A model generated the notes under the pieces. It saw only the letters and a program-made list of their open reading frames with translations. It searched no databases and was not told where the DNA came from. The position numbers and the translations under genes are program-made. Shown one piece after another: positions 9,507 to 64,000 of a DNA stretch of 64,000 nucleotides. Positions within the stretch are counted from its first letter, which is position 1; each line of letters starts with the position of its first letter. The stretch is from an uncultured Gemmatimonadales bacterium (lineage in GTDB: Bacteria > Gemmatimonadota > Gemmatimonadetes > Gemmatimonadales > GWC2-71-9). The DNA is taken from NCBI GenBank assembly GCA_963724265.1, contig CAVRTU010000006.1:24152-88151 (forward strand). The letters are read 5' to 3'.

Positions 9507-9510
9507 GCCG

Positions 9511-11162: not shown

Positions 11163-12116
11163 GCGCCACCGCTCGCGTCGGCCACGGTGTCGAGGTCCAT
11201 GGCGAACCCCACCGCGGGCCTCGGGGCGCCGTAACGCGCCACCAGGGTGTCGTAGCGGCCCCCGGCGCCCGCCGCACGGCCCGCCCCCGCCACGAACAAT
11301 TCGAAGTGAATCCCCGTGTAATAGTCGAGACCGCGGACTTCGCCGAGGTCGTAGACCAGGTGCCGGCGGTCCTCGGGAGTGAGCGCCGCATCAATGGCGA
11401 GCAGGTGGGTGAGGGCGGGCCGGGCGGGTGCAGGCGCTTCCCTCAAGGCGGCCTCGAGGACGGGTCGCCGGCCGATCACGAAGGCGAGATCGGCCAGCGC
11501 CCGGACCGGGACGGATTCACCGGCCAGGGCCCGGGTCAGGCTGCCCCGGTCCTTCCGGTCGATCCAGCGCCGGACCTCGTCGCGCCGCCCGGGCTCCAGC
11601 GCCTCGAGCCCCGGGGCCAGGGCACCGACATGGCCGAGATTGACCTGGAATTCGCCCAGCCCGGCGGCATGGGCCAGCGCCAGCGTCAGCCGCAGGATCT
11701 CGATGTCTCCCGCCAGGCCCGGCTCCCCGATCAGTTCGGCACCCAGCTGCAGCGTTTCCCGCGGACCGCCACCCCGCTCCGGCTCCTGCCGGAAGACGGG
11801 GCCGGTATAGGCCAGCCGGAGCGGGCCGGCCTGTCCGGCAAAGGCCGTCGCAGCCATCCGGGCGATGCTGGCGGTGAAGTCGTACCGCAATGCGAGGATC
11901 CTCCCGTCGCGGTCCACCAGGCGGACCAGCCGCTCGGCCACCGGCGGGCCAGCGGCCCGGAGGAAGATCTCCTCGTACTCGACAGGTCGGGGTGATCGCT
12001 TCCTGGTAGCCGGCAGCGGCAAGAATGGCCATTCCATCCCGCTGCAGCCCACGTCGCCGAGCGGCCGAGGGGCCGGTCAGGTCGATCGAGCCGGGGGGAG
12101 TGAGGGACGGGAGCAT
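11159..12116 (-). CDS. hisZ: ATP phosphoribosyltransferase regulatory subunit (frameshift near 11985)
   Basis: LALRYDFTASIAR, QLGAELIG, DYYTG, GGRYDTL, AVGFA; adjacent to short hisG. Confidence 0.9.
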
Positions 12117-12125
12117 GGCGGGCTC

Positions 12126-13448: not shown

Positions 13449-13494
13449 GCGGGCGAACGTTAGCGGGGCGGGAGCCCCGCCGCGAGGTGGCCCG

Positions 13495-14784
13495 ATGATC
13501 CGCTCGATCACCGTTCCGCCCTTCGATCGGCTGGAGCCATTCCTGCCCCGCCCGGGGCGTCCGGACCCCGCGACCCGCGATACGGTCGCCGCGATCATGG
13601 CCGAAGTGGCCGAGCGGGGTGACGCCGGGGTGCAGGCCTGCCTGCAACGGTACGACGGCCTTGAACTGGCTCCCGGTACCTGGGAAGTGCCCCAGGCCGA
13701 CTGGCAGGAAGCGCTCGACCACGGCATCGATCTCGAACTGCGCGACGCGCTGGAGACCGCCGCCGCCCGGATCCGCGACTACCACCTGCGCCAGAAGGAC
13801 GCCGGCTTCCAGCTGCTGCAGGAAGACGGCAGCATCCTCGGCATGCGGGTCGCCCCAGTCGATCGGGCGGGGATCTATGTCCCCGGTGGCAAGGCGAGCT
13901 ATCCCTCCTCGGTCCTCATGAGTGCCATCCCGGCCGCGGTGGCCGGGGTTCCCGAGATCATCGTGGTGACGCCCGCCGTCGGGGGTGACCGATGCGGTGC
14001 TGGCCGCCGCCAGCCTGGCGGGGGTGACCCGCCTCTTCCGCGATCGGCGGAGCGCAGGCCATCGCGGCGCTGGCGTACGGAACGGCGACGATCCCCCGGG
14101 TGGACAAGATCGTGGGCCCGGGCAACCGCTGGGTGGCCGAGGCCAAGCGTCAGGTCGCGGGGCTGGTCGGGATCGACATGATGGCGGGGCCGACCGAGCT
14201 GGTGGTCATCGCGGACGGCACCGCCGACGCCGACCGGGTGGCGGTCGACATGATCGCCCAGGCGGAGCACGACGAGGACGCCACCGCCTGGTGCGTCACC
14301 ACCGACCTGCAGCTGGCCGAGGCGATTCCCGGCGCGCTGGAGCGGGCGCTGGCCCGCGCGCCGCGGGGCGAAGGTGGCTCGGACCGCCCTGGACCGGAAC
14401 GGGCTCGTGGTCTGGGTGCCGAGCACGCGAGAGGCGGTGCAGGTGGTCAACCTGCGGGCGCCCGAGCACCTGATGATCCTGACCCGCGACCCCGAGGCGG
14501 TGGCCGAGGGGGTGCGCCACGCCGGCGCCATCTTCCTGGGCGAGGACTCGCCGGAACCGGTCGGGGACTACATCGCCGGCCCCAGCCACGTGCTGCCCAC
14601 CGGCGGGACGGCGCGGTTCGCCTCGCCGCTCGGCGTGTATGACTTCATCAAGCGCACGAGCATCGTGTGGTACAATCGCTCCCGGCTGCTCAACGATGCG
14701 GACCGGATCATCGTGCTGGCGGCGGCGGAGGGGCTGCCCGGTCACGCGGAGGCAATGCGGATCCGGATGAGAGACGAGCGGTAG
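13495..14784 (+). CDS. hisD: Histidinol dehydrogenase (frameshifts)
   Basis: [59 protein letters not shown]. Confidence 0.95.
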
Positions 14785-14802
14785 AGGCGGCAGAGGCGGA
14801 CG

Positions 14803-15808
14803 ATGATGCACAGTCATTCACATGGGGTTGGTGCGGGGCACGGGGGGGCGAGCCACTCCGTGCCGCGCCGCCTCTCCCGCCACGACCGCCTCACCTCCGT
14901 GTCCCGCGGTCGTGGCACCCAACCCCGATTCCACACGGCGACTCTGGCTGGTCCTCGGCATCACCTTCGCGTTCATGCTGATCGAGGCGGTGGGTGGCTG
15001 GCTCGCGGGCTCGCTGGCGCTGCTGGCGGACGCGGCCCACATGCTGACCGACGTGGGGGCGCTGGGGCTGGTGCTGCTGACCGCCTGGATCTCGCGGCGG
15101 CCGGCTGACGACTCCAAGACCTACGGATATCTCCGGTGGGAGATCCTGGCCGCGCTGGTCAATGGGGCCTTCCTGTTCGGTGTCGCCGTGGTGGTGGTCG
15201 TGGAGGCGGTCTCCAGGATCCGTCACCCGGAGCCGATCAAGGCGGGGCTCTTTCTCGGTGTGGCCGTCGCCGCGCTGCTCGCCAACGCCGTTTCGCTCTT
15301 CCTGCTGCACGCCGACCGGGAACACAGCCTCAACACCCGGGGCGCCTATCTCCATGTCCTGGGCGACCTGCTGGGGTCGCTGGGCGCGATCGCCGCGGCG
15401 CTGATCATCCGGTTCACGGGGTGGACGCTGGCCGACCCGCTGCTCTCGATCCTGCTCTCCCTGCTCATCCTGGGCGGCGCCTGGCGGCTGGTCCGCGAGA
15501 GCACCGACATCCTGCTCGAGGCGGTCCCCCGGCACGTGCAGCTGCCCGAGGTGCAGCGCCGGATCCTGTCGGTACCGGGCGTGGCGGCGGTGCACGATCT
15601 CCACGTCTGGACGGTCACCAGCGGCATGGTGGCCATGAGCGGCCACGCGGTGGTGCCGGTGCTGGCGGAACATCCCCGGGTCCTGGCCGGGATCCGCGAG
15701 GAGCTGGCCCGGATGGGGATCGGGCACGTGACGGTGCAGGTGGAGGTGGGGTCGGCGTGCGGGGAGGGGGCGGGAGGGCGGGAGGGCGGGAGGGCGGGAG
15801 GCTCCTAG
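14803..15808 (+). CDS. Cation diffusion facilitator (CzcD/ZitB-like; His-rich N-terminus, frameshift)
   Basis: MMHSHSHG start; SLALLADAAHMLTD, AYLHVLGDLLGS, VHDLHVW. Confidence 0.9.
15768..15801 (+). repeat. Tandem (GGGCGGGA)n array, left arm of an inverted pair flanking the four-helix-bundle gene
   Basis: gggcgggagggcgggagggcgggagggcgggagg read directly. Confidence 0.85.
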
Positions 15809-49981: not shown

Positions 49982-50054
49982 AGGTCCGTAGCTCAATTGG
50001 TAGAGCACCGGTCTCCAAAACCGGGGGTTGCAGGTTCGATTCCTGCCGGGCCTG
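49982..50054 (+). tRNA. tRNA-Trp(CCA)
   Basis: AGGTCCGTAGCTCAATTGGTAGAGCACCGGTCT-CCA-AAACCGG...GTTCGATTCCTGCCGGGCCTG. Confidence 0.95.
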
Positions 50055-50060
50055 TAATGG

Positions 50061-50172
50061 GAGTCGTGAGTCGTGAGTCGTGAGTCGTGAGTTGCGTCTG
50101 GACGATCGAAGGTATGCCGTCGTGATCGTGAGCCCTGCGACTTCGACGACTCACGACTCAAGACTCACGACT
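50061..50172. repeat. (GAGTCGT)n / (ACGACTC)n heptamer hairpin in tRNA spacer
   Basis: gagtcgt x4 ... acgactcacgactcaagactcacgact; second copy at 50259-50339. Confidence 0.85.
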
Positions 50173-50179
50173 GTCCTAC

Positions 50180-50252
50180 GGCGCTATCGTCTAGGGGACT
50201 AGGACGGGGCCCTCTCAAGGCCCAAACACGGGTTCGAATCCCGTTAGCGCTA
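50180..50252 (+). tRNA. tRNA-Glu(CTC)
   Basis: GGCGCTATCGTCTAGGGGACTAGGACGGGGCCCT-CTC-AAGGCCC...GTTCGAATCCCGTTAGCGCTA. Confidence 0.93.
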
Positions 50253-50346
50253 TGATGGGAGTCATTAGTCGCGAGTCGTGAGTCGTGAGCTCCTGCAGTT
50301 GCGCTTTGCTCACGACTCACGACCTCACGACTCAAGACTGTAGTTT

Positions 50347-50418
50347 GGCCCCATCGTCTATCGGTCAGGACGCGACCCTTTCAAGGTCGAAAGACGGGTT
50401 CGATTCCCGTTGGGGCTA
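50347..50418 (+). tRNA. tRNA-Glu(TTC)
   Basis: GGCCCCATCGTCTATCGGTCAGGACGCGACCCT-TTC-AAGGTCG...GTTCGATTCCCGTTGGGGCTA. Confidence 0.93.
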
Positions 50419-50426
50419 TACACCAC

Positions 50427-50499
50427 GCGCCGCTAGCTCAATTGGCAGAGCAAGTGACTCTTAATCACTAGGTTGTAGGTTCGATTCCTACGCGGCGCA
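50427..50499 (+). tRNA. tRNA-Lys(CTT)
   Basis: GCGCCGCTAGCTCAATTGGCAGAGCAAGTGACT-CTT-AATCACT...GTTCGATTCCTACGCGGCGCA. Confidence 0.95.
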
Positions 50500-50502
50500 C
50501 TG

Positions 50503-50532
50503 AGAGGCCCTCCCGAACGGGGGGCTTTCTTG
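50503..50532 (+). terminator. Rho-independent terminator of the tRNA operon
   Basis: agaggccctccc-gaac-ggggggctttctt. Confidence 0.7.
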
Positions 50533-50694
50533 TTGTCGACCGGCCGCGGTGGGCCCCTACCAATGCTGGTAGTAGCGAGGTGGATCGATTCGGCGCATCT
50601 TGGCAACTCGATCGATGGCGCCATGACAGCGGAAACGGCCGTGGCCATCGACGGCCCGGCTTGGGGCCTCAACCTCAAACAAGCTGATGTGACT

Positions 50695-51738
50695 ATGGCC
50701 AGAAGACGCAAAACACCCGTACCTGACCCGGCGGGAGCGACGGATACGGAGGCTAGCCCAGCTACCGAGTCGGCTGATGGCAGCGCGGTGCAAGCCCATG
50801 TGACCGCGCCGACAACCCAGCAGCCTGCAGCGCCCTCGACTCCCTGGATTCAGCTTATTGAGCTAAGCGGGACCAATCCGAGCGACGAGCAGCTAAAGTC
50901 AATCGTGCATGAACAGATCGCGTACGATCTCAGTAATGATCCAATCTCAGCCAAATACAACGTGCTTTTCCTGTTTGACTCGGTCGCGATTGCTCGCTCA
51001 GACACCGATCAACTCTACAGAGCATTAAGCAAGACACCACGCGATAAACCCCTCCTGCTCATTATTAACTCCGATGGCGGCGATGTAGCTGCTGCCTACT
51101 TTATAGCGAAAATCTGCCGAGAGTTCACGGACGTCAGCTTTGAGGTTGCAGTCCCTAGGCGAGCCAAATCAGCGGCGACACTTATTTGTTGCGGCGCCGA
51201 GCACATCTATATGGGTAGCCTCAGTGAGCTAGGCCCCATCGATCCGCAATTCGAAGGCGGAGTTCCGGCGTTGGCACTTAAGAACTCTATCGAACACCTT
51301 GCCGAACTAACCAAACGACACCCACAAGCGGCCGATCTCTTCGCATCTTATTTGTCAAAAACACTCCGCATTGAGGCACTAGGATACTACGAGCGAGTTG
51401 CGGAGTCCGCTGCACAATACGCGGAACGTCTGCTAAGAGGCCGCAAGTCACCGGTACTCACAGAGGATAGAATCAAGGCGATTGCAGAGCGACTAGTCTA
51501 CATGTACAAGGATCACGGGTTTGCGATTGATGCTGGTGAAGCAAGAGCCATTTTCGGTGAAGGGGTTGTCTTGACCAACACTCCCGAGTATTCGCTCAGC
51601 AACCGCCTTTACTTGTCGTTGGATATCATGCAACGGGTTCTTCGAGATCTCCACCAACTAGGTTTTGCCTTTACAGGGACCGCGGCTGCAGGCTGCCAAT
51701 TACGAAAACGCCCTCGTGTCGAATCGTCGACGACATAG
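50695..51738 (+). CDS. ClpP/SDH-fold serine protease
   Basis: IINSDGG, VPRRAKSAATLICCGA, MGSLSELGPIDPQ, YKDHG. Confidence 0.85.
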   Translation: MARRRKTPVPDPAGATDTEASPATESADGSAVQAHVTAPTTQQPAAPSTPWIQLIELSGTNPSDEQLKSIVHEQIAYDLSNDPISAKYNVLFLFDSVAIARSDTDQLYRALSKTPRDKPLLLIINSDGGDVAAAYFIAKICREFTDVSFEVAVPRRAKSAATLICCGAEHIYMGSLSELGPIDPQFEGGVPALALKNSIEHLAELTKRHPQAADLFASYLSKTLRIEALGYYERVAESAAQYAERLLRGRKSPVLTEDRIKAIAERLVYMYKDHGFAIDAGEARAIFGEGVVLTNTPEYSLSNRLYLSLDIMQRVLRDLHQLGFAFTGTAAAGCQLRKRPRVESSTT

Positions 51739-51939
51739 CCCATAAATGCGGCGGCTGACGGCGGCCTACCGGTAGCAGTCACTGTCCCGGAGGGGGAGTC
51801 CGAGTCGCTGATTCGGGAGGGCGACCCAGGGAGCTGCTAGGGCGGGAGATTGTTGGGGCTAATCGGTACTAGCTCCTGGCCGAGCCTCGTCCTAGTTATG
51901 ATTCAAGATGATTAAGGACCTCCCGCCCTGTTTGGGTCA

Positions 51940-53160
51940 ATGACTCCTCCCCCGGCAGGCATCACGGACGCGGCGCTCGACGTCGCGCTTGATCCAGAGC
52001 GCCGGGCGTCATTGCGACGAGCCGCAATCGATGATTCGCCGGTGGCAGGGAGCACGCACTCCTTCTACCGATATCCGGCACGATTCTCACCGGGTTTCGT
52101 GGCGTCGGCAATCGAGGCGTATTCCAAGCCGGGCGATTTGGTTCTGGATCCATTCATGGGCGGCGGGACTACACTGATCGAAGCTGCTCAACTCGGCAGA
52201 AGTGCGATTGGAAACGACATCAATGCACTCGCGGTCTTTATTGCGCGAGTGAAGACAACCCGGCTGACCAATTCGCAAATTGCCGCGCTGACCGATTGGG
52301 CGAACTTTGTCGTCCCATCATTGCGCTACCAGAGCGAACTCGCCGATAGGTCAATGGTGCTCTGTTCGAAACGGACCAGGAACCTCACACTTCCACACGC
52401 CAGACCAATAAAGAAGATTACTGCACTCGCCCTTACGACACTTGAAGAACTACCGGACGGGGCCACTCGCCGCTTTGCACGATGCGCCTTGCTAAATGTT
52501 GGGCAATGGGCACTCAATGGAAGGAGAAGGCCGGTCACTTGCGCATCATTTCGCGCGGCACTTCAAGACTGCGTGCATAGGATGCTTGCGGGAATTGAGG
52601 AATACGCTCTAAGGGTGGCAGCTGCCGGTGGGCGGGCTCCGTCGATCTGCATGGGCTCGGCAACCGAAATCGCCGGGGCGGTCCCCTTTCGGTCGGGAGC
52701 CAAGGCGGACTTGGTGGTCATGAGCCCTCCATACCCAGGAATTCACATATTGTACCACAGGTGGCAGGTCGATGGCCGCAAGGAATCCCCTGCCCCGTAC
52801 TGGATCAGCGGGACGATGGACGGAAAGGGGGGCGCCCACTACAATCTCGGCGACAGAAAAAAGGCCGACGCGAACGACTACTTTGAAATGCTGGAAGTGG
52901 CCATGCGAGCAATCCGCACGGTGACAAAAGACGGTGCGAAGGTGATTCAGATGGTGGCATTCGGGCGCCCGGCACGCGACCTACCAAGGTACCTTACTGC
53001 CATGCTCGCAGCGGGGTTTGGTGAGCTTCATGGAACGTCCACTTCAGGCACACAAGGAAGGCGGCTTTGGAGAAGTGTTCCGGGCCGCGCGTGGCACGCA
53101 ACATCGAAGGGGGACCTCCCTGCCAGCAGGGAGGTCGTGTTGATTCATAAGGCCATCTAA
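51940..53160 (+). CDS. DNA methyltransferase, probably N4-cytosine, with FxGxG before SPPY
   Basis: THSFYRYPARF, VLDPFMGGGTT, GNDIN, SPPY. Confidence 0.85.
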   Translation: MTPPPAGITDAALDVALDPERRASLRRAAIDDSPVAGSTHSFYRYPARFSPGFVASAIEAYSKPGDLVLDPFMGGGTTLIEAAQLGRSAIGNDINALAVFIARVKTTRLTNSQIAALTDWANFVVPSLRYQSELADRSMVLCSKRTRNLTLPHARPIKKITALALTTLEELPDGATRRFARCALLNVGQWALNGRRRPVTCASFRAALQDCVHRMLAGIEEYALRVAAAGGRAPSICMGSATEIAGAVPFRSGAKADLVVMSPPYPGIHILYHRWQVDGRKESPAPYWISGTMDGKGGAHYNLGDRKKADANDYFEMLEVAMRAIRTVTKDGAKVIQMVAFGRPARDLPRYLTAMLAAGFGELHGTSTSGTQGRRLWRSVPGRAWHATSKGDLPASREVVLIHKAI

Positions 53161-53170
53161 TGCGGACATG

Positions 53171-55750
53171 TTACTCCGCATCTCCTAGTTGTGCGAGACC
53201 ACTGATCTGATCATCGCTGAGTGACCCAAGGCTGTCGATCATAGGTACTAGAAACGGACTGAGCGACATCGATACTGATCTGATCATCTGCACAACGGAT
53301 GGTCCTTCCTCGCCCGCGGAGCCGTCGCCCTGGGACACCTCCGCCCGCTGGACCTTGAAATCGTGGAGGAGTGCAAGCCCAACAAGCACGTTGCCATAGA
53401 CGAATCGCGCCTTCACCAACCGCACTTCATCAGCCTTCCCCTTCATCTCTGTTCGCACAAAGATGTTGTCGACATTTACATAAAATGTGAATGCCCGTTG
53501 ATCTGGCCTGTCTGGATCACCGTCCTCGACGACATGGCACGCATCCTTGTCGGTAAACTTGTATGCTCTCCAGTTGACATCTCCCTCCCGCACCTCGACA
53601 ATGGTAGGCATCTGCAGCCCACCGGGAGCAAGCTGTCCTTTCTCATCCGGGGTCCCTGCTCCGGCCGCGGAGCCGCCGCCAGAGGCTTGTCCTCGACCTT
53701 TGGGCTTCTCGTGCCCTCCAGCGCCTCCCTCATGCGTGCTCTGACTCGTGATTTGGATCTTCGCGATATTGACCAACGGATCAATCAGCGACCCGTCCGT
53801 GACTGTACAAGCGAGGGTCAACACGTCACCAGGTGCGACGGCTTCGGATGGAATGCTAATGCTCCAGTTCGCTACCCCCCCGTGGAGGGCGAGACTGTGA
53901 TCGACCTCACTTCCTTCGAGTGGCCCCTCAAGAATCTCAACGTGGTATTGACCACGGAGTTGATCACGTGAGAAGTAGTCATTGACAACATCCGTATCGA
54001 ACTTGATTCGGCAGCGGCGGCCCAACTCCGCGTTCCGCTCCAACGTGATGCCCTCCTGCCTTCCGTGGAAGCGAAAGTACGTCGGGTGCGGGCGCCCAGT
54101 GAACTCACTATCGCCTGCGTCCGGTCCACCGCCGATTTCCCCGGTGCCGCCGGTCTGCCTGTGTGGCTTGGAAAGTCGTTGGCCAAGGAGAAACAGTCGG
54201 GAGAGGCTCGGTGAGTCCTTGAGAATTGAGCCAAGTACTTCCTCGAGGGGCTTTGATTCGGCGAGCTTCTTGTCGACTTCCTCACTTCGCCGGCGATCTT
54301 GTAGTGCGCGCAGGCCGGGGTGATGACCAATGGCCTCCTCAAGCTCCTCCTCGATCGCCTTTCGCAACTCGATACTGCTTAACCGGTCGCGACTATTCAT
54401 GAAGAGATCCTCTCGCGAGCCGACCGATACGGCGCTGCAATCAACGACAATTAGAAGGGACCTGGCGATGCGCTGCATCCGGACTGTGCGGCGCTCGAAG
54501 AAGGTGCGGGGCAGCGTGCCATGTGTTTGCCCGTTCACCGTAAAGATGATGCCGTCGTTCGGGGCGTACGACGTTGCCCGATCGTCCCTGAATGCGAATA
54601 TCTGCGCAACCATTTCTTCGCCGCGCACCTTGACTTGAATGGAGGTCGGATAGCCCTCTTCCAGATTGCCTGCGCGATCCTCCTCCAAACGCGCCAGCAG
54701 GCCGACCAGTGTGGTCTCGAAACTACGTGCTTCGTCGCCTCTGTACTCCCGGCATTCATGAACCCGGACCGGAAGTGCGATACCTGGCAAGAGCAACTCT
54801 AAACGTGCCAGCAGCCCACCCTTCATCAACGCATGGCTCTTGAAGCCTTTCATGTCGTATTCATACAACTTGATTACGGAGCCGTAGCGCATCTCTGCTC
54901 CATATGGCTTGTTTCGCTCTGGCATCGACCTAAGCGCTTCAGATGAGAACACAAGAAGCGCCCCATTGTTCGGCGCAGCGTCCGCGCCGATGGGGGCGAG
55001 AAAGCGATAAACCGAATTCCGCACAGCCCCTGTTGCTGCACCAGGGCGCTCGCGGCGAACAACCGTAACGCTCCACTTGCCCTGATCTGGATGGTGTTCC
55101 CCGTTCTTGGCGGTGACGGTCGGATCGCGCCGGGAGATGATCAACTGCAAGTTTTCCGTTCCGCAGAATTTGAGAACACCGGTACCACCCATGTTAAACT
55201 TGCCTTGGACGAACGGAATGCGAAGCTTGTTCTGTCGATTGATCGACAGGAAAGTCTCCGGGACGCGGGTCGGCGCCTGCCCCTCACCAAGATCGGCGAT
55301 GGTAATACTCGCGTTTCCTGACCTTGCCTTGGCCCCTGTAATTGCGATGGTAATGAATCGAGACTGGCTGAGCTGCCGATCTTGCGGCCAGTCCTTCAGA
55401 TGGCCGCCAAATCCTCTGGCCTTGCGTCCCTCTTCGAAGAACTCCGCGACCGCGTCGGTGATACTTTGCGGGGCCTGCGCCGAAGTTGGGTCGATCCCTC
55501 TACGGAAGCACTCGTCCATCAGTCGAGAATCGACGCAGTTGACCACCTTCTCAACAAGAGCGGCCTCGGGTCGGCTTTGTTGGTTCCCGATGGTTGAAAA
55601 GTTCGATTCGATGTCCCCGTAAAGCCGCCATGCCGCGTCGCTATCCCACAGCTTTGCCTTCTTGAGAATGTCAACCACTTCATTCTCGGTGTCCGCGTGG
55701 AGCAAGGCCAGCGCTAGTGCTCGGACTGATTCGTTCGTCAATTGTGACAT
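53171..55750 (-). CDS. Large GHKL (MORC/Hsp90-like) ATPase
   Basis: Bergerat motifs EKVVNCVD, ADLGEGQ, GKFNMGGTG, YGSVIKL; long uncharacterised C-terminus. Confidence 0.72.
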   Translation of the reverse strand: MSQLTNESVRALALALLHADTENEVVDILKKAKLWDSDAAWRLYGDIESNFSTIGNQQSRPEAALVEKVVNCVDSRLMDECFRRGIDPTSAQAPQSITDAVAEFFEEGRKARGFGGHLKDWPQDRQLSQSRFITIAITGAKARSGNASITIADLGEGQAPTRVPETFLSINRQNKLRIPFVQGKFNMGGTGVLKFCGTENLQLIISRRDPTVTAKNGEHHPDQGKWSVTVVRRERPGAATGAVRNSVYRFLAPIGADAAPNNGALLVFSSEALRSMPERNKPYGAEMRYGSVIKLYEYDMKGFKSHALMKGGLLARLELLLPGIALPVRVHECREYRGDEARSFETTLVGLLARLEEDRAGNLEEGYPTSIQVKVRGEEMVAQIFAFRDDRATSYAPNDGIIFTVNGQTHGTLPRTFFERRTVRMQRIARSLLIVVDCSAVSVGSREDLFMNSRDRLSSIELRKAIEEELEEAIGHHPGLRALQDRRRSEEVDKKLAESKPLEEVLGSILKDSPSLSRLFLLGQRLSKPHRQTGGTGEIGGGPDAGDSEFTGRPHPTYFRFHGRQEGITLERNAELGRRCRIKFDTDVVNDYFSRDQLRGQYHVEILEGPLEGSEVDHSLALHGGVANWSISIPSEAVAPGDVLTLACTVTDGSLIDPLVNIAKIQITSQSTHEGGAGGHEKPKGRGQASGGGSAAGAGTPDEKGQLAPGGLQMPTIVEVREGDVNWRAYKFTDKDACHVVEDGDPDRPDQRAFTFYVNVDNIFVRTEMKGKADEVRLVKARFVYGNVLVGLALLHDFKVQRAEVSQGDGSAGEEGPSVVQMIRSVSMSLSPFLVPMIDSLGSLSDDQISGLAQLGDAE

Positions 55751-55751
55751 A

Positions 55752-56411
55752 TCAGACGTTCGCCTCGTACCTCGGTAGGCTGCTCCATGTTGCGTCGATG
55801 ATCTCAGGCGCAAGCTGAGCGGCGTTGACTGCGTACCCATCCTTGCCGGTCCGTTCAACAACCCCAAGTTGTCGCAGCCAGGCAACGACGAGATATACCT
55901 GATAAGACGGTACCTCCTGTTCTTCTGCATCCGCGACAGGAAGTAGAGCGTTCATCGTGATTGTCGGTGCGCGCTTGCCTCGCTTAGCTAGCGCACCGCA
56001 TACTGCGACGACCGCCGAGCGTGGGGCTTTGTGTTCATATTCTCGATCGTCCTTCTTGGACCAACCGATCTTCACTAGCCGATCTCCTTCCCGCTCAAAG
56101 CGCGGATAGGTGGATGCGAGCTGTGAACGGAGTTTGCCGCGCGCGCCCGACTGAGCTTCCGGTGTGGCGGGTCGCGGGGCAGCACCAAGTTGTGGCCAGG
56201 CACGACCTGTTCCCCTGAGCGAATCACCGTTGTCAACGTCCGCTGCTGTCCGTCGCCGAACACTCGCGACCCCGTCGGCGAGTTCGGCTAGCACCGCCAC
56301 CATTGCATAGCGATTTTGCTCAAGGCACTGCTGAATGAGCTTTCGTATCCCCGCCTCAGCCGTACCCAACAGTGCCTCTGCACGAGCCACTTCATCTAGG
56401 CCGTCCGACAT
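55752..56411 (-). CDS. Hypothetical protein, possible winged-helix DNA-binding regulator
   Basis: GGAGG RBS; C-terminal SYQVYLVVAWLRQLGVVERTGKDGY resembles a wHTH. Confidence 0.6.
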   Translation of the reverse strand: MSDGLDEVARAEALLGTAEAGIRKLIQQCLEQNRYAMVAVLAELADGVASVRRRTAADVDNGDSLRGTGRAWPQLGAAPRPATPEAQSGARGKLRSQLASTYPRFEREGDRLVKIGWSKKDDREYEHKAPRSAVVAVCGALAKRGKRAPTITMNALLPVADAEEQEVPSYQVYLVVAWLRQLGVVERTGKDGYAVNAAQLAPEIIDATWSSLPRYEANV

Positions 56412-56439
56412 TTCATCCTCCGGTATGACTACATGGAAT

Positions 56440-56468
56440 AGCATAGCGATACATGTATGTATTGTCAA
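56440..56468 (-). promoter_or_regulatory. Near-consensus sigma70 promoter with a palindrome in the spacer
   Basis: Minus strand TTGACA-17bp-TATGCT; ATACATGTAT palindrome at 56449-56458. Confidence 0.7.
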
Positions 56469-56711
56469 TTCCTAGTATATCTACTTGTAATAACTGGTTT
56501 AACCATGTAATGGCACTTGCCTACGGGCATGCGCATCCTGCCATCCATGTAAGTCGTAATGCCGCAACAGCTTATGCCATCGTGAGCTCTCCTGCCAGGT
56601 ACGCACCAGGCGGTAGGCTACCTCGGGCGAAGGAAGGGCCAAGGTAGAGCGCCCAATTTGTTGAGTTCCAGATCGTCGCGAGGCTTCGGGAGGGAGAGTG
56701 CGGGGTCCCAG

Positions 56712-57252
56712 CCGCCGGACCTTCTCGGCCGCCGAGATGCTGATCGACGCCCTGGAGAACTGGAGCAACCCGATCTTCGTGGGCGAGCCGGCCGCCTCCC
56801 GCGGCAACATCTACGGCGATTCGAAGAAGCTGGTGCTGCCCAACAGCAAGGTCACCCTTCGGGTGTCGACCCTCTACTGGCAGTTCTGGGATCCGCGCGA
56901 CACCCGGCCCTGGATCGCTCCGCAGATTGCGGCACCGCTCACCGTCGAGGCCTACGCCGCCGGGCGGGATCCGGCGCTCGAGGCCATCGCGCACTACGTC
57001 CCGCAGCCGCCGCTGACGGAGCGCCTCAAGCCGCTGCTCGTCGCCGGCGACAGCGCCGGCGCCTGGCAGGCGGTCGAGGCCTTCCGGGCCGATCCGGTCA
57101 ACGCCTGGCAGGTGCCCGCGGATTCGCTGGATGCAGTCGATCAGACCCTCCAGGCCGAGGGGAACAAGGATGCGGCGGCGCTGGGGGAGCGGCTGCGGGC
57201 GCGGCTCGCCACCGAGGCCCCTTCCGCCGGAGGTGGCCCGACCGCACATTGA
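56712..57252 (+). pseudogene. C-terminal remnant of an S41/ClpP-like peptidase
   Basis: RRTFSAAE...IFVGEP...YGD...LPNS...PWIAP...DPALE; begins just before the catalytic Ser, with no N-terminus or RBS. Confidence 0.65.
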
Positions 57253-57322: not shown

Positions 57323-57793
57323 ATGCTCTCCCTCATCGCGTATCCCCTGGCGCTGGCTGTCGCAGCCGGTCCGTGTGACCTGGTGGACAAGGCGGCAGCC
57401 ACTCAGCTCCTCGGCGCCCCGGTCACCACCGTGAGCCCGTCGGGTCCCGAACCGGATGAGGACACCGGTGCCACCCGGAATGCCTGTGTCTACCAGGCGG
57501 GGGACCGGATGCTGGTGCTCGTGCGCCTCGACTTCCCGACCGCCACCGCCGCCCGCGATGCGGCCAGCGAGCAGCTGCAGAGCGACGACCTCACCGAAGA
57601 GGGGACCACCATCAAGGAGGAATCCGGCCTCGGCGACAAGGCCTGGCTGGCCCATACCCGGCACGGCCTCCAGTACATCGTGCTCAAGGGCCCCACCGTA
57701 CTCTCGCTGGCCATCGGAGGGATGCCCAAGGAGCTCTCGACATACGAGTCGCAGCTGCGGTCCGCCACTGCTGCCGCTGCGAAGAAGCTCTGA
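57323..57793 (+). CDS. Hypothetical secreted protein
   Basis: Signal peptide; PCDLV...LLG...CVY...GLGDKAW pattern. Confidence 0.6.
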   Translation: MLSLIAYPLALAVAAGPCDLVDKAAATQLLGAPVTTVSPSGPEPDEDTGATRNACVYQAGDRMLVLVRLDFPTATAARDAASEQLQSDDLTEEGTTIKEESGLGDKAWLAHTRHGLQYIVLKGPTVLSLAIGGMPKELSTYESQLRSATAAAAKKL

Positions 57794-57794
57794 G

Positions 57795-58934
57795 GTGGCC
57801 ACCAGGCGGTTTTCATTTGCCAGGGCACCCGTCCTCGTCCTTTGCGCCGTGCTTGGGGTCGCGTGTTCCGGTGGAACCGATTCCGGGCCGCCTTACGTGG
57901 CGTGGGCAAGTCTGACGGCTGGTTGGCAGCACGCCTGCGGCCTGACCGGTGGCGGGACCGCCTATTGCTGGGGGGATGGAATCCTCGGCGAGCTCGGCGA
58001 CAGCTCGGGCCTGAATCGCCTGGCGCCGGCGGCCGTTCTCGGCGGAATCGGATTCGCGACTCTCACAGCGGGGAATTCGCATACCTGCGGCTTGACCGGC
58101 GCTGGGATCGCGTACTGCTGGGGTACTTCAGCGCACTCGGAGCTCGGTGACGGCACCTACGATCAGCGCCCTCGTTACGCTCCGGCTGCGGTAGCAGGGG
58201 GGATCGTGTTCACGGAACTCACCGCAGGCGGCTGGCATACCTGCGGCATTGATGAAGGTGGTTTGGCGTTCTGTTGGGGCTACCGCTATGGGGTCGGCCC
58301 GGCCGCCATCGAGGGTGGAATCCGGCTTGCCGATCTTTGGGCGGGTAGTATGCACAGTTGCGGCCGCACCGACGCTGGTCTGGCCTACTGTTGGGGAGAT
58401 AATTTGGCTGGTCAGCTTGGCGACGGAACGGACATCGGTCGCTTTGTTGAGGCGCCGGTCGCAGGCGGACTGACTTTCTCAAGCCTGTCGGCAGGTGGGG
58501 CCTTCAACTGCGGGCTGACCAGCGCGGGGATGGCCTGGTGCTGGGGTTACAATTTCACCGGTGCGCTCGGCGATGGCTCGAAGACCGATCGCCGCGTTCC
58601 TGTCGCGGTCGTGGGGGGACTCACCTTTCAAAGCCTGACCGCGGGCCTTGGCCATACCTGTGGCCTCACTACCACCGGCGCGGCCTACTGCTGGGGGTGG
58701 AATCAGAGTGGCCAGCTGGGAGACGGCTCGACCACCGATCGGACTTCGCCGGTGGCAGTACGAGGAGGAATCAGGTTTACCGTGCTGGTTGCGGGAGGCG
58801 AATTCACCTGTGGCCTCTCGTCTGTCGGGAGGGCGTACTGCTGGGGTGACAATGGTTACGGCGAACTTGGTGACGGGTCTCAAACCTCGCGCTCGTTTCC
58901 TGCGGCGGTGCTGGATCCCTTGCTGAACCGCTGA
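57795..58934 (+). CDS. RCC1/BLIP-II repeat lipoprotein
   Basis: LGVAC lipobox; seven repeats of LTAGxxHTCGLTxxGxAYCWGxNxxGQLGDG. Confidence 0.9.
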   Translation: MATRRFSFARAPVLVLCAVLGVACSGGTDSGPPYVAWASLTAGWQHACGLTGGGTAYCWGDGILGELGDSSGLNRLAPAAVLGGIGFATLTAGNSHTCGLTGAGIAYCWGTSAHSELGDGTYDQRPRYAPAAVAGGIVFTELTAGGWHTCGIDEGGLAFCWGYRYGVGPAAIEGGIRLADLWAGSMHSCGRTDAGLAYCWGDNLAGQLGDGTDIGRFVEAPVAGGLTFSSLSAGGAFNCGLTSAGMAWCWGYNFTGALGDGSKTDRRVPVAVVGGLTFQSLTAGLGHTCGLTTTGAAYCWGWNQSGQLGDGSTTDRTSPVAVRGGIRFTVLVAGGEFTCGLSSVGRAYCWGDNGYGELGDGSQTSRSFPAAVLDPLLNR

Positions 58935-59017: not shown

Positions 59018-60469
59018 ATGGCAACCCCCACCACCGCCCCTCCCGCCTCTTCCGCCCCTCCCGCCGCGACCGCCCCGTCCGAGATCCTCTCTCGACAGCG
59101 GGCGGCATTCCTCCGCGATGGCCCGCCTTCCGCCAAGGCCCGGAAAGCCTCGTTGCTCCGCCTCAAGCAGCTGCTGGTCGACCACCAGGCCGACTTCGTG
59201 GCCGCGGTCTCCGCCGACTTCAGCCACCGCTCGCCGCACGAGACCATGCTGGCCGAGCTCTTCGCCACCATTGCAGGAATCCATCACTCCGCCACCCACG
59301 TCGCGTCGTGGATGCGGTCCGAGCGCCGTTCGGTCCCGTTCTACTTTCTGCCGGGCCGGGCCCGGGTGGTCTATCAGCCCCTCGGCGTGGTGGGGGTGAT
59401 TTCGCCGTGGAACTATCCGGTCAATCTCGCCCTGGCCCCGCTCGCCACCGCGCTCGCCGCCGGCAACCGGGTCATGCTCAAGCCGTCGGAGTACACCCCC
59501 GCCACCTCGGCGCTGATGGCGTCAGTGCTGGCCGAGGGATTCACCGAGGAGCAGGTCGCGGTGATCACCGGCGGCGCCGAGGTGGGGGCGGCATTCACCC
59601 GGCTGCCGTTCAATCACCTCTTCTTCACCGGCAGCACCATGGTCGGGCGGGCGGTGATGCAGGCGGCCAGCGAGCACCTGGTGCCGGTCACCCTCGAGCT
59701 CGGCGGCAAGTCGCCGGTACTGATCGACTCCGATTACTCGCTGGAGAAGGCAGTCCGCAGCATCGCCCACGGCAAGCTGTTCAATGCCGGCCAGACCTGC
59801 GTGGCGCCCGATTACGTCCTCCTGCCGGAGGGCCAGGCCGAGCGGTTCGTCACGCTCTTCGCCGAGCAGGTCAAACAGCTCTACCCCCGCCTGGGCGACA
59901 ATCCCGACTACTCCGCGATGGTGAGCCAACGGCACTACGACCGGATGCAGCTGCTGGTCGATGACGCTCGCGCCAAGGGCGCCCGGGTGGTCGAGATAAA
60001 TCCGGCCGATGAAGACTTGCGGGGGCAGGAAGGCCGCAAGTTCGCCCCGACCCTGTTGCTCGACGTCACCGATGAGATGACGGCGATGCAGGACGAGATC
60101 TTCGGGCCGGTGCTGCCGGTCCGGACCTACCGCGACTTCGACGAGGCCATCGCCTCGATCAATGCCCGGCCACGGCCGCTGGCGCTGTACTACTTCGGCA
60201 AGAGCAGTGCGCGTCAGGAAGCCGTGCTCGATCTCACCACGTCGGGCGGAGTCACCATCAACGACACCCTGCTCCACTTCCTGGCGGAGGATCTTCCCTT
60301 CGGCGGCGTGGGCGCCAGCGGGATGGGGGCCTATCACGGGCGGGAGGGATTCCTGACCTTCAGTCACCGGAAGGCGGTCTTCCGGCAGAGTGCGCTCAAC
60401 GGCAGCAACCTGCTCCGGCCGCCCTATACGAAGGTGATCGAACGGATTGTGGCGTTCCTCATGAGGTGA
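59018..60469 (+). CDS. Coniferyl-aldehyde dehydrogenase family ALDH
   Basis: SPWNYP, KPSEYTP, FTGST, LELGGKSP, NAGQTCVAPDY, EIFGP, PFGGVGASGMGAYHG. Confidence 0.9.
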   Translation: MATPTTAPPASSAPPAATAPSEILSRQRAAFLRDGPPSAKARKASLLRLKQLLVDHQADFVAAVSADFSHRSPHETMLAELFATIAGIHHSATHVASWMRSERRSVPFYFLPGRARVVYQPLGVVGVISPWNYPVNLALAPLATALAAGNRVMLKPSEYTPATSALMASVLAEGFTEEQVAVITGGAEVGAAFTRLPFNHLFFTGSTMVGRAVMQAASEHLVPVTLELGGKSPVLIDSDYSLEKAVRSIAHGKLFNAGQTCVAPDYVLLPEGQAERFVTLFAEQVKQLYPRLGDNPDYSAMVSQRHYDRMQLLVDDARAKGARVVEINPADEDLRGQEGRKFAPTLLLDVTDEMTAMQDEIFGPVLPVRTYRDFDEAIASINARPRPLALYYFGKSSARQEAVLDLTTSGGVTINDTLLHFLAEDLPFGGVGASGMGAYHGREGFLTFSHRKAVFRQSALNGSNLLRPPYTKVIERIVAFLMR

Positions 60470-60584
60470 AGGATTTCCGGTCAATTGACAGGGCTGATCT
60501 CACATTCCTATTGTGGCGCAATGTCGACCACCCCGGACGTGCCTGCCTCACGCTGCAGTTGATCACCCCCAGCAGGAGAGTACC

Positions 60585-60743
60585 ATGGATTCGAAACCGG
60601 CCAAGAAGCCCGATGAGAAGCAGAAAAGGAAGACCGGAGCCGCGCGTCCGCTGACAGAAGACGAGGCCAAGCAGGTGAAGGGTGGCACGAAGGCAGAACT
60701 GAAGGAGGGCAGCCTCAGTCCGGACATCAGCTTCAAGCGATGA
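60585..60743 (+). CDS. Double-glycine-leader precursor peptide 1 (52 aa)
   Basis: AGGAG RBS; MDSKPAKKPDEKQKRKTGAARPLTEDEAKQVKGG|TKAELKEGSLSPDISFKR. Confidence 0.75.
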   Translation: MDSKPAKKPDEKQKRKTGAARPLTEDEAKQVKGGTKAELKEGSLSPDISFKR

Positions 60744-60799
60744 TCCTGTATTCAATTGCAGGGCTGTGAACACGTAGTCATCCGTCACGGGAGGGTACC

Positions 60800-60973
60800 A
60801 TGGATTCGAAACCGACCAAGAAGCCCGAGCAGAAGCAGAAGAGGAAGACCGGAGCCGGGCGTCCAGTGACAGAGGACGAGGCCAAGCAGGTAAAGGGAGG
60901 AGCGTCAGACATCTTCGCCAAGATCGGCGACATCAAGGGTGAGTCTCTCGACATAAAGCACCGGGCCTGGTAG
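60800..60973 (+). CDS. Double-glycine-leader precursor peptide 2 (57 aa) with Hcp-like core
   Basis: GGAGG RBS; MDSKPTKKPEQKQKRKTGAGRPVTEDEAKQVKGG|ASDIFAKIGDIKGESLDIKHRAW (manual translation; below the ORF-track cutoff). Confidence 0.78.
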   Translation: MDSKPTKKPEQKQKRKTGAGRPVTEDEAKQVKGGASDIFAKIGDIKGESLDIKHRAW

Positions 60974-61009
60974 TACCGATCGAGCCACGATCCTCCCCAA
61001 CCGCAGTCT

Positions 61010-61045
61010 GAGGGATCCGCCCGCGCCTGACCGGGCGGGTCCCTC
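61010..61045 (+). terminator. Strong hairpin between the precursor genes and the enzyme gene
   Basis: gagggatccgcccg-cgcctgac-cgggcgggtccctc. Confidence 0.55.
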
Positions 61046-61109
61046 CGATCTTCTGTTCGCCGTATCTCCAGACTCCAGCGCCCCAATCGCATCCTCGGCC
61101 CGAGGCCAC

Positions 61110-62195
61110 ATGTTCACCTCCTCGAGTCCACTGCCACCGCTCTACGACCGGTGGATGCAGCAGTGCCTCCAGGGTGCGATCCCCCCGGAGCCGAAGGCCA
61201 CCTGTCACGATTGCGCCATGTGTGCTGCCGAGAGGGCCGAGCCCTCGCGGGAGGCGGTGTTTTTCAACCCCGCGAGCAAGTGCTGCACCTACATGCCGAC
61301 GCTGTGGAACTTCCTGGTGGGTTCACTCCTGGAGGACGACAGTCCCGAAGCCGCCGCAGGACGCCAGACCGTCGAAGCCCGGATCGATGCCGGGGTGGCC
61401 GTCACCCCCCTGGGACTCGCCAGCCCGCCGGTCTATCAACTGTTGTATTCCCGGATTGTGGGCGCCTTCGGCCGGGCGCAGAGCATGCGTTGTCCTCACT
61501 ACATCGAGGAGGGTGGGCGGTGTGGGGTGTGGCGCGCCCGCGAGTCCACCTGTGCCACGTGGTTCTGCAAGCACGAACGAGGCGCCGTGGCCAGGGAATT
61601 CTGGAATCAGCTGCATCGGCTCCTCGTGCTGGCCGAACGCGGCGTCAGCCGCTGGTGCCTGTTGCAGCTCGAACTCGGCGAGGAGGCCCTCCGCGCGCTG
61701 ATGCCGCTGCCGCAGGCGGGCACCGCCGACCCGATGACCGCCGCCGATTTTGACCATCGTGCCGATCCACAGACTTACCGGCGGAAATGGGGGCGTTGGG
61801 CGGGCAAGGAGCGGGAGTTCTTCCGTCGAGCGGGTCACCTGGCCCGGGAGCTTCCGTGGAGCAAGGTGCGCGAGCTGGGCGGGGCGGAGGCAGCAATCGC
61901 GGAGGTCCTCGTCCAGGAGGCCTTCGGGCGGCTGCTCTCGACCGAATTGCCGGAGCGGATCCGGGCCGGGTCGTTCAGGCTTGTGCCAGATTCCGGCGGT
62001 GGGGGGCTGGCGATCGCCTACTCCGGAAACGACCCGCTCAGGCTCTCGGGGGCGATACTTGGAATCCTTCCCTTCTTCGACGGCCAACCGACCAGTGCCG
62101 CGCTCCAGGCAATTCGGGAGACGCGCGGGCTCGACGTGTCCCCGGCGTTGCTCCGCAAGCTGGTGGACTTCGGCGTGCTGGAGGATGCGGGGTGA
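61110..62195 (+). CDS. Cys-rich YkgJ/FliB-like (putative Fe-S or Zn) enzyme with possible C-terminal RRE-like domain
   Basis: CHDCAMC...KCCTY...CPHY..GGRCGVWRARESTCATWFC; C-terminal strands followed by helices ending LLRKLVDFGVL. Confidence 0.65.
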   Translation: MFTSSSPLPPLYDRWMQQCLQGAIPPEPKATCHDCAMCAAERAEPSREAVFFNPASKCCTYMPTLWNFLVGSLLEDDSPEAAAGRQTVEARIDAGVAVTPLGLASPPVYQLLYSRIVGAFGRAQSMRCPHYIEEGGRCGVWRARESTCATWFCKHERGAVAREFWNQLHRLLVLAERGVSRWCLLQLELGEEALRALMPLPQAGTADPMTAADFDHRADPQTYRRKWGRWAGKEREFFRRAGHLARELPWSKVRELGGAEAAIAEVLVQEAFGRLLSTELPERIRAGSFRLVPDSGGGGLAIAYSGNDPLRLSGAILGILPFFDGQPTSAALQAIRETRGLDVSPALLRKLVDFGVLEDAG

Positions 62196-62430: not shown

Positions 62431-64000
62431 GTGACCCCCCGCCGTGCGGCGACACCGATCCTCGCTCTCCTGACTCTTTCGCTGGCACCACCCCTGCGTG
62501 CCCAGGTGGACAGCGCCGGCACCTTCGTTCCCCACGTTCTGGTCACCGACGCCACCATCAAGCTCGATGGCCATCCTGACGAGCCGGTCTGGTTGCAGGC
62601 CGATTCCATCACCCAGTTCACTCAGCGCGAGCCCGACGAGGGGCAGCCGGTCACCGAGCGCACGGTGGTGCGGTTCCTGGCTCGGCCCGACGGGCTCTAC
62701 ATCGGCTTCTGGGGCTACGACCGGGAGCCGCGCTCCATCCGCCACGCCCAGCTCAAGCGCGACGCCGACTTCGAGTCGGACGACGCCTTCTACATCCTCC
62801 TCGATCCGCAGCAGAGCAAGCGCTCGGGCTACATCTTCGCCGTCAACCCCAATGGGGCGATGGTCCGACGGCGAGATCATCAAGGTGGACCAGGCCAACT
62901 ACGACTGGGACGGGGTCTGGGACGCCCGCGCCGTGATCACCGAGCAGGGATGGTTCGCCGAGCTGGCCATCCCCTGGACTACCCTGCGCTACCGGGTGGG
63001 CGCCCCGGCCTGGGGGATCAACGTCGAACGGTTCCTCCGGCGGACCAACCAGGACGCCCTCTGGCGCAGCTACCTGCGCCAGCAGGGGCTCCTGTTCCAG
63101 CAGGATGAAGGGGAACTGGCGGGCTTCGAGGGCATCGGCCACGGGGGGCGCGCCGAGTTGCGGCCCTATGTCGCCGGGATCGGGAGGATGAGCGAGCGCA
63201 GCTTTGACTCGCTCGGCGTGGACAGCGTCACCCAGCCGGGCGGCATGGACCTGCGGGGGGGCGCCGACCTCCGGATCGGAGTCACGCCCACCCTGACCGC
63301 CGACTTCACCGCCAACACCGATTTTGCCCAGGTGGACGTGGACCAGCAGGTCCTCAACCTGACGCGCTTCGTCTTCTTCTTTCCGGAGAAGCGCCCCTTC
63401 TTTCTCGAGGGGGCTGGCATCTTCGACCTGGGCCAGGAGGAGCGGAACCTCCTCTTCTACAGCCGGCGGATCGGGCTGGCCGACAGCGGGCAGACCGTTC
63501 CGCTGGTCGGAGGCGCCCGGCTGCAGGGACGGACCGGGCACGAGCAGGTGGGGCTCCTGCTGGTCAAGACCGGCGGCACCCAGGACGCCTGGGACGGCGT
63601 CGGGCGCATCAAGCACGACGTAATGTCACGGGGTTACGTGGGGGCGATGTTCACCGGCCAGCAGCTCCCCGACCAGCCCGGAAAGCTGGGCGCCGGTCTC
63701 GACTTCCAGCTCCCCTTCATCGTCGGCGGCCAGAACCTGGTGTTCTCGGGGTACGCGATCGGGACCACTGACCTTGGCAGGAGTTGGGGCAACTCCTGGC
63801 GCCTGTTTCTCGACTATCCCAACGACTGGTCCAACGACTTCTTCGCCGTCAGCCGGCTCTCGGGCGACTACGACCCCGCCCTCGGCTTCGTGCTGGAGCG
63901 CGGCGTCTGGCGCCACACGGCCGGGTTCGAGTTCTTCCCGCGCCCCCACCTGCTCGGCATTCGCAAGTTGCTGCTCAAGGTGATCGAGTGGGACGTGAAC
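62431..64000 (+). CDS. CBM9-like sugar-binding / DUF5916 outer-membrane protein (frameshift near 62865; runs off the window)
   Basis: IKLDGHPDEPVW, FTQREPDEG, FAVNPNG, WFAELAIPW, NTDFAQVDVD, FFPEKRPFFLEG, FYSRRIG. Confidence 0.85.

Follow-up and report, generated by a model that had tools for sequence, protein, structure and literature searches.

A double-glycine-leader peptide with a core resembling the N terminus of the type VI secretion tube protein Hcp in an uncultured Gemmatimonadales bacterium

INTRODUCTION

Why would a bacterium place the first residues of a type VI secretion system (T6SS) tube protein behind the leader of a small precursor peptide? The question is raised by a 57-codon open reading frame (ORF) in a 64,000-nucleotide stretch of the genome of an uncultured Gemmatimonadales soil bacterium, referred to here as the window. 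The initial annotation described the ORF as a leader ending in Gly-Gly, a 23-residue core resembling the N terminus of the tube protein Hcp, and a stop codon, and it proposed that the core was either a captured 5′ fragment of hcp or a mimic of the protein. Bacteria are known to withstand T6SS attack with physical barriers, through responses to envelope stress, and by producing immunity proteins; to our knowledge, no secreted factor is directed at the T6SS machine itself.

RESULTS

The peptide gene is one of two tandem paralogs upstream of a conserved partner gene

The reading of the ORF as leader, Gly-Gly, core, and stop held up exactly as first described (Table 1). The Gly-Gly pair stands directly ahead of the variable core, as in double-glycine leaders, and across 41 peptides positions G33 and G34 show little or no variation. 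A paralogous gene lies immediately upstream. The leaders of the two window peptides are 81% identical, and the DNA of the two genes is nearly identical from the ribosome binding site (RBS) to the GG codons and then diverges completely in the core. We conclude that ORF 60800-60973 genuinely encodes a precursor peptide with a double-glycine leader, as one of two tandem paralogs.

Downstream of both peptide genes, in the same orientation, lies a gene for a conserved 361-residue protein (the partner). A σ70-like promoter candidate upstream of the first peptide gene matches 10 of 12 consensus positions (1 site versus 0.2 expected in shuffled sequences), a match to consensus only. The region between the second peptide gene and the partner gene (60974-61109) has a minimum free energy of −48.2 kcal/mol (z score of −1.97; 7 of 200 shuffles were equally stable). 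It contains a GC-rich hairpin that was not called by a terminator scan and is possibly a terminator or attenuator. Transcription of the two tandem peptide genes ahead of the partner gene forms part of our best explanation of the locus, which as a whole is tentative and a little short of an even chance.

Table 1. Positions of the peptide genes, the partner gene, and associated features (window coordinates unless another contig is given)
Feature	Position	Strand	Description
σ70-like promoter candidate TTGACA-18-TATTGT	60485..60514	+	~70 nt 5′ of first peptide gene
Paralogous precursor peptide	60585..60743	+	52 aa; 56 nt 5′ of the 57-aa gene
Paralog leader	60585-60686	+	34 aa, ends KGG
Paralog core	60687-60740	+	TKAELKEGSLSPDISFKR; shortened, diverged, weakly Hcp C-terminus-like
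RBS GGGAGGG of 57-aa precursor gene	60789-60795	+	4 nt ahead of ATG
Precursor peptide gene	60800..60973	+	57 aa; stop 60971-60973
Precursor leader	60800-60901	+	34 aa, C-terminal VKGG; MDSKPTKKPEQKQKRKTGAGRPVTEDEAKQVKGG
Precursor core	60902-60970	+	23 aa, corresponding to Hcp residues 2-24; ASDIFAKIGDIKGESLDIKHRAW
13-bp GC-rich hairpin, then U-containing tract	61011..61044	+	Between peptide genes and 361-aa partner gene
Conserved partner protein	61110..62195	+	361 aa
Partner C-terminal domain	residues ~280-361, nt 61947-62192	+	Predicted RRE (PqqD-like) fold
Main GG-peptide cluster (C4)	L168 (G000:C4:1398000-1417900), 3806-15669		Own genome, other contig

The genes flanking the locus encode an aldehyde dehydrogenase (59018-60469), a DUF5916 protein (62498-64000), and a 492-residue protein with seven RCC1-type repeats (57456-58934); these are unremarkable genes without an apparent connection to the peptide locus. 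Farther away, positions 50000-57000 form an island of low GC content (55 to 60%, versus ~68% around it) with genes for a ClpP-like serine protease of the SDH type (50530-51738) and an N6/N4 DNA methylase (51940-53160) and, on the minus strand, for a 919-residue protein with no Pfam match (53171-55930). This island may be an acquired defense or mobile island.

The core matches Hcp residues 2 to 24, starting directly after Gly-Gly

We compared the core with 67 full-length Hcp proteins taken from fetched loci, which served as the Hcp reference set and from which a local Hcp hidden Markov model (HMM) was built. Smith-Waterman alignment gave a score of 107, with 21 of 23 residues identical to residues 2-24 of the Hcp of locus L010. 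Shuffled cores (n = 300) scored 29 on average (standard deviation, 4.3; maximum, 49), and none reached the observed score, while the leader aligned with Hcp at chance level (198 of 300 shuffles). Among 6,063 small ORFs, the local HMM found the 57-residue ORF at an E value of 7.5e-10. This match covers HMM positions 2-24 and begins exactly at the first residue after GG; reversed sequences gave no match at an E value of ≤1. The likeness to the Hcp N terminus and its onset at the predicted cleavage site were therefore borne out. In the PDB, eight of the nine matches of the core at an E value of ≤10 were N termini of Hcp or of Hcp1 fusions, including 1Y12 residues 5-24, each of them individually weak (E values of 0.02 to 1.3). 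HMM searches of the core gave a divided answer: the local model recognized it, whereas the Pfam model PF05638 gave no match to the 57-residue peptide at an E value of ≤1, so the peptide lies below the gathering score of the Hcp family.

A frameshifted or pseudogenized hcp was considered as the source of the match and rejected. When all six frames of the 64-kb window (1,713 pieces) were scanned with the Hcp HMM, the core was the only match at an E value of ≤0.1, and the next (E value of 0.51) lay elsewhere; because of this, no frame downstream can be said to continue Hcp, in agreement with the initial annotation. Its further statement that the window holds no other T6SS gene also stood: the six-frame scan revealed none, and the assembly likewise has no VipB.

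Hcp-core peptides form a family maintained by selection

A word-index search and an exhaustive representative search (33 matches at an E value of ≤0.001) recovered dozens of proteins of 47 to 112 residues. The word-index search yielded 27 short peptides (P0002 to P0028), and the exhaustive search yielded more, in which diverse GG leaders precede an A[SA]DIFAK[IL]GDIKGES core. The leaders are Lys-rich and end in ...VKGG, end in ...NPKGG, or are of the classical ...ELxxVxGG type; the junction of GG with the Hcp N terminus is thus shared by peptides with three or more unrelated kinds of leader, and fusions of a leader to an Hcp core, first contemplated from the window peptide, number in the dozens. 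The tail after the core motif is short and often basic, and some peptides stop right after GES. In one family member, three copies of the K[IL]GD[IK]... motif are present. Large proteins were also recovered: P0084 (1,066 residues) and P0097 (612 residues) contain several tandem Hcp domains, and P0082 (936 residues) and P0108 (168 residues) contain 15 and 5 repeats, respectively, around the motif FIKLGDIKGE.

Between the window and locus L005, from a Bryobacteraceae metagenome-assembled genome (MAG), 9 of 15 codons of the core block differ without a single amino acid change. Since the codons have drifted and the residues have not, the core is not a decaying fragment, and the comparison of coding sequences indicates that it is maintained by selection. 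The proposal that an hcp 5′ fragment was captured as a peptide core is supported to this extent: an Hcp N-terminal segment is joined to a GG leader and kept there by selection. Among 151 genomes of the same phylum, the window peptide was found in the window's own genome only. The full-text literature, as covered by listings and the openings of abstracts, contained no mention of Hcp-derived leader peptides or of PF03692/CxxCxxCC proteins in RiPP systems. The Hcp-core leader-peptide family is widespread and apparently undescribed.

Cores from different loci tile the Hcp sequence

Applied to the 6,063 small ORFs, the Hcp HMM gave 13 matches at an E value of ≤0.01 and 21 at an E value of ≤1, while reversed sequences gave 0 and 0. 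All 13 of the stronger matches have a GG leader, and together they span HMM positions 2-158. The match starts 0 to 3 residues after GG in nine cases and 1 to 3 residues before it in two, and in the remaining two it runs into the leader. The copied segments correspond to HMM positions 2-28, 37-71, 59-85, 86-107, 108-154, 127-158, and 137-157, with weaker matches at 43-70, 55-76, 71-87, and 90-118. Four peptides of a single locus (L006, from an Acidobacteriota MAG) match positions 2-22, 37-71, 86-107, and 108-154. In five further peptide-bearing genomes, all PF05638 matches are partial, covering at most 61 of 129 positions, and all eight Hcp-fragment regions fetched from two of these genomes (G003 and G004) proved to be GG-leader ORFs. 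Taken across loci, the Hcp-like cores tile the whole Hcp sequence.

The core of the upstream paralog may be part of this pattern. It aligns with Hcp residues 137-152 with a score of 36 (shuffles, 25 ± 3; 1 of 300 reached 36), and it lines up with the Hcp C terminus itself, with stronger cores of the C-terminal type at L005, L006, and L158, and with P0086. The Hcp HMM did not match the paralog core at an E value of ≤10. Its alignment therefore assigns this core only weakly to the Hcp C-terminal type.

To a smaller extent, other parts of contractile injection machines are represented. The peptides around partner homologs were assembled into a set of 102 (described below), and Pfam searches of this set at an E value of ≤0.1 returned T6SS_HCP eight times, Phage_T4_gp19 twice, Tox-PAAR-like once, and Bacteriocin_IIc twice (E value of 0.052), along with 14 singletons that we took as noise. 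Locus L042, from a Desulfobacteraceae MAG, encodes an Hcp N-terminal core (27.1 bits, over the cutoff) and a PAAR-like core (21.9 bits, under the cutoff) behind the same leader. The gp19 matches are cores of the ...LKWENVTLKRG type with E values of 0.002 and 0.042, below the cutoff. Other cores (...YSFQNAWPKK; LLPAV...DGSVR...) recall what we take to be tail-tube and pseudopilin motifs, and Pfam searches of eight peptides of this appearance returned nothing at an E value of ≤1.

The copied Hcp belongs to canonical T6SS clusters and differs from that of close relatives

The copied clade of Hcp is characterized by MASDIFAKIGDIKGES...KYDIK.... Within 8 kb of the 67 Hcp loci, we found genes for VipB (18 loci), TssF (17), VipA (16), ImpA_N (14), TssM (13), TagF (12), and gp25 (11). 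Because VipB, VipA, TssF, TssM, and others adjoin in 11 to 18 of the 67 loci, the copied clade is a canonical T6SS tube protein. All Hcp loci with T6SS neighbors come from Acidobacteriota, Vicinamibacterales, or Proteobacteria.

The same clade also occurs as full-length Hcp, often with a GTG start, at ~21 loci with no T6SS gene within 8 kb. These loci (~8001-8480 in each of L011, L018, L022, L023, L026, L028, L029, L031, L036, L043, L044, L054, L055, L058, L064, L067, L070, L076, L079, L081, and L082) come from MAGs labeled Actinomycetota, Thermoleophilia, Chloroflexia, Gaiellales, or Mycobacterium, and they represent either orphan Hcp genes of Gram-positive bacteria or binning errors. Since the copied clade is found without T6SS neighbors at these loci, the target of the peptides may be something other than a T6SS. 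At two further loci (L068:7257-8498 and L071:228-824), Hcp follows a hydrophobic, signal-peptide-like N terminus, so that the mature protein would start with AADIF or AADYF.

The producer's own assembly contains no Hcp over the cutoff and no VipB. It measures 3.68 Mb in 6 contigs, close in size to those of relatives, with a completeness rating of 57.7%, at which a T6SS may have escaped detection; its absence is not proven. VipB was likewise absent from all six peptide-bearing genomes (0 of 1, own; 0 of 5, others), as was full-length Hcp. Among the 151 genomes of the phylum, 13 encode a near-full-length Hcp and 11 encode VipB, both same-genus genomes included. The Hcp of these same-genus relatives starts with MAFDAFLKIKGVDGEAT, ends with ...WDLRSVSAK, and matches the window core at only 7 of 23 positions (ungapped count) versus 21 of 23 for the copied clade. 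On this difference in sequence, the window cores copy a foreign type of Hcp and not the lineage's own.

The partner combines a predicted RRE fold with an invariant-cysteine region

Partner homologs adjoin Hcp-core peptides at L005, L006, and L042, where they are 34 to 48% identical to the window partner (E values of 1e-55 to 1e-115); with the window included, the partner stands beside such peptides in four phylum-level lineages. At least 406 homologs of the partner were found, all without a recorded Pfam domain; JGI labels some of them "Fe-S-cluster containing protein," and among the named homologs the nearest come from Gemmatimonadota MAGs. In 61 partner sequences, eight Cys residues are invariant, all located in the N-terminal part.

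An AF2 model of the partner (pLDDT, 87.5; pTM, 0.87) was compared with solved structures. In the model, residues 280-361 align with RRE domains with Z scores of 5.0 to 8.3 over 70 to 83 residues: TigE (Z score of 8.3; 81 residues, 2.8 Å), MibB (8.0), MccB (7.7), the PbtF RRE (7.2), TbiB1 (6.6), NisB (6.1), and PqqD (5.7), and also MadB, TbtB, lasso B1, McbB, and LynD. On this fold-level evidence, the modeled C-terminal domain is a RiPP leader-recognition element fold, and the precursor is encoded together with a predicted RRE-domain protein, as is characteristic of RiPP systems. A Foldseek search with the whole partner returned nothing at an E value of ≤0.001, and its only results were weak local matches to McbB and TbiB1. 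Residues 1-279, folded alone (AF2), gave a helical region with a pLDDT of 77; against solved folds, the best Z score was 5.0, with helical matches only and no recognized fold. In an atlas search by features with this domain, all matches scored <0.9; a neighbor with PF03692 in 15% of members scored 0.84 and is a lead only. PF03692 (CxxCxxCC/YkgJ-type) itself scored 13.1 to 16.3 bits on both partner paralogs of the genome, against a cutoff of 23.

A predicted complex of the peptide and the partner received a score of 0.20 and a mark of 0.32, values that count neither for nor against binding. When five further genomes were queried with the partner, this query did not find it in four (three with GG-type peptides and one of a different type, L019). 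On this result, and because Hcp cores are also found behind classical leaders, the partner is not obligatory for Hcp-core peptides.

Partner loci carry C39 exporters and arrays of GG peptides

We examined the neighborhoods of 84 partner loci (the window, L005, L006, L042, and 80 metagenome loci, many of them short). Frequent neighbors were cNMP-binding/C39-peptidase/ABC exporters (PCAT; 12 loci) and HlyD (9 loci), followed by sensor kinases (5), MacB/FtsX (4), B12-radical SAM proteins (4), LanB (3), and σ54 activators (3). An ad hoc filter retrieved 103 GG-leader-like small ORFs from 33 of the loci, in arrays of up to at least 17. Removal of 4 obvious false positives and of the duplicates and addition of 7 peptides that the filter had missed gave the set of 102, with the leader consensus MAxK...KVKxL...AKxVKGG. 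The largest arrays beside partner homologs comprise at least 17 GG-leader peptide genes (L108:5746-13035) and 12 such genes (L117:4633-10213); their cores are short and highly diverse, with the recurring motifs LLPAV..., ...DGSVR..., and ALNKTGKG....

The window locus has a partner gene but no exporter gene. The genome encodes exactly one C39 exporter, on a contig other than the window's, so that a C39 ABC transporter is available to the window peptides. It comprises cNMP_binding, Peptidase_C39 (114 bits), ABC_membrane, and ABC_tran domains, has HlyD adjacent to it, and contains Cys and His in contexts that we take to be catalytic. A second partner paralog, 48% identical to the window partner, lies ~4 kb away. 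This cluster (C4) (Table 1) encodes a penicillin-amidase-family protein, seven GG-leader peptides, the partner paralog, a σ54 activator, HlyD, and the exporter, with the σ54 activator between the partner paralog and HlyD. Its peptide cores are 9 to 14 residues long and Lys-rich, for example, GTYTPKKGQ and GKLLFGQDRPTDSR. Since the sole exporter sits here together with a partner paralog and seven GG peptides, the window locus, with two peptides and its own copy of the partner, looks like a satellite of the C4 cluster.

DISCUSSION

The explanation that we find best, though we hold it at somewhat less than an even chance, is that the 57-residue precursor gives rise to an exported mimic of Hcp that acts on the Hcp of neighboring bacteria. 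The partner would bind the leader through its predicted RRE, and modification of the core by its Cys-rich domain is possible. Cleavage after GG by the exporter would then release a 23-residue peptide starting with ASDIF, which is presumably the N terminus of mature Hcp after removal of Met. Released peptides of this kind would be structural mimics of Hcp strands. They might bind the Hcp of neighboring T6SS-armed bacteria, or a factor that recognizes Hcp, and disturb the folding or assembly of the tube; we place this step between unlikely and tentatively plausible. Such a disturbance would serve as a defense for a producer without that kind of T6SS. Hcp is cytoplasmic in the attacker, and an exported peptide could reach it only by being taken up or by meeting Hcp that has been released or injected.

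The persistence of Hcp identity behind unrelated leaders, the coverage of the whole protein by tiled cores, and the PAAR-like and gp19-like cores together argue for a link of the peptides to contractile injection machines. Extended to the family, the reading becomes that soil bacteria without a T6SS secrete a "shrapnel set" of peptides, each copying one segment of the tube protein of their neighbors (certain arrays would also copy the spike tip or a tail tube), and so poison the contractile injection machines of rivals. This would be anti-T6SS defense by molecular mimicry and would involve a new RiPP-like pathway with a Cys-rich enzyme. We consider this broader picture unlikely.

The most serious alternative, rather unlikely in our estimate, is that the peptides are ordinary bacteriocins or RiPPs that inhibit or kill competitors, possibly after modification, through a membrane or envelope target unrelated to T6SS, and for which Hcp fragments (e.g., an amphipathic β-strand) were merely raw material. 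Exported GG-leader peptides together with a maturase-like partner are the gene set that it predicts; most cores have no likeness to Hcp (PF05638 in 8 of 102), those of the C4 cluster are short and Lys-rich, and LanB and B12-radical SAM genes occur in 3 to 4 of the 84 partner loci. The GG region of the window peptide also matches the NCBIfam lactococcin G-alpha family NF038035 below threshold (E value of 0.0016; 18.5 bits versus a cutoff of 37). However, in different phyla and behind different leaders the cores retain ~90 to 100% identity with Hcp despite codon drift. Raw material alone explains neither this nor why every part of Hcp is represented, nor why, apart from Hcp, only the gp19 tail tube and PAAR-like proteins stand out among the Pfam families as repeated or notable.

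We regard as improbable a role of the peptides as signals or decoys, in which they would imitate breakdown products of Hcp and be sensed by kin, rivals, or a eukaryotic host as a cue that a T6SS attack is nearby, or would saturate the sensor. Short linear exported peptides are a typical signal format, sensor kinases and σ54 activators are found at 5 and 3 of the 84 partner loci, respectively, and a σ54 activator is part of the producer's C4 cluster; tiling of the whole protein would also suit recognition of any Hcp fragment better than a single binding interface. Against this, no receptor was found, and no system that senses Hcp peptides is known to us. The σ54 promoter pattern occurred at chance level in the window (16 matches versus 20.5 expected) and nowhere within positions 60400-60800, upstream of the peptide genes.

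An intracellular role seems quite improbable. Here, the GG leader would be a handle for the RRE partner only, and the peptides would neutralize incoming Hcp-borne effectors or the tube proteins of phage tails and tailocins. The pairing of the window peptides with a partner but no exporter fits such a role, as does the existence of gp19-like and PAAR-like cores, but 12 of the 84 partner loci combine leaders of this kind with a C39 exporter, and so does the genome itself, where the C39 domain is strongly matched and has its presumed catalytic Cys and His. Lastly, that the ORF is a chance frame or a decaying hcp 5′ remnant is hardly credible: the match is just 23 residues long and has no Pfam call, but the gene has a good RBS, a paralog with a nearly identical leader, a conserved partner gene alongside, synonymous-only change among orthologous peptides, and no hcp continuation in any frame.

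Under our preferred reading of the peptide as an exported Hcp mimic, the family, in which selection preserves identity with Hcp although the genomes lack that T6SS, is a candidate for a secreted anti-T6SS factor. Whatever the function, the locus shows a route by which RiPP or bacteriocin cores arise from fragments of structural proteins, points to a large partner family with a predicted RRE domain and eight invariant Cys residues, and offers natural peptide sequences usable as probes or inhibitors of Hcp assembly.

Comparison with three known systems places the locus. With Hcp/TssD (PF05638, e.g., 1Y12), the window peptide shares a core nearly identical to residues 2-24 of the Hcp of canonical T6SS clusters, and Hcp N termini are the top PDB matches of that core. 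Unlike Hcp, it has an export leader, and because only 23 of ~160 residues are present, no Hcp β-barrel or ring can form; T6SS genes are absent from its vicinity and from the 57.7%-complete assembly. With RRE-dependent RiPP maturases (NisB, MibB, MccB, TbiB1, and LynD), the partner shares a predicted RRE-fold domain and a gene position next to the precursors, whereas its residues 1-279, with the eight invariant Cys, match no solved fold informatively. A third comparison is with peptide systems of the GG-leader/PCAT type, which include class II bacteriocins, microcin-type peptides, and the multiprecursor NHLP/Nif11-type systems. In common with these, the window family has a short leader ending in GG, several precursors with a common leader and divergent cores, and, both in the genome and at related loci, HlyD and an ABC exporter that combines cNMP-binding and C39-peptidase domains. 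In contrast to them, the accompanying protein is a Cys-rich RRE protein and no known maturase, the leaders of the window subfamily are Lys-rich (consensus KVKxL...AKxVKGG), and the cores copy segments of Hcp, a structural protein of a secretion machine.
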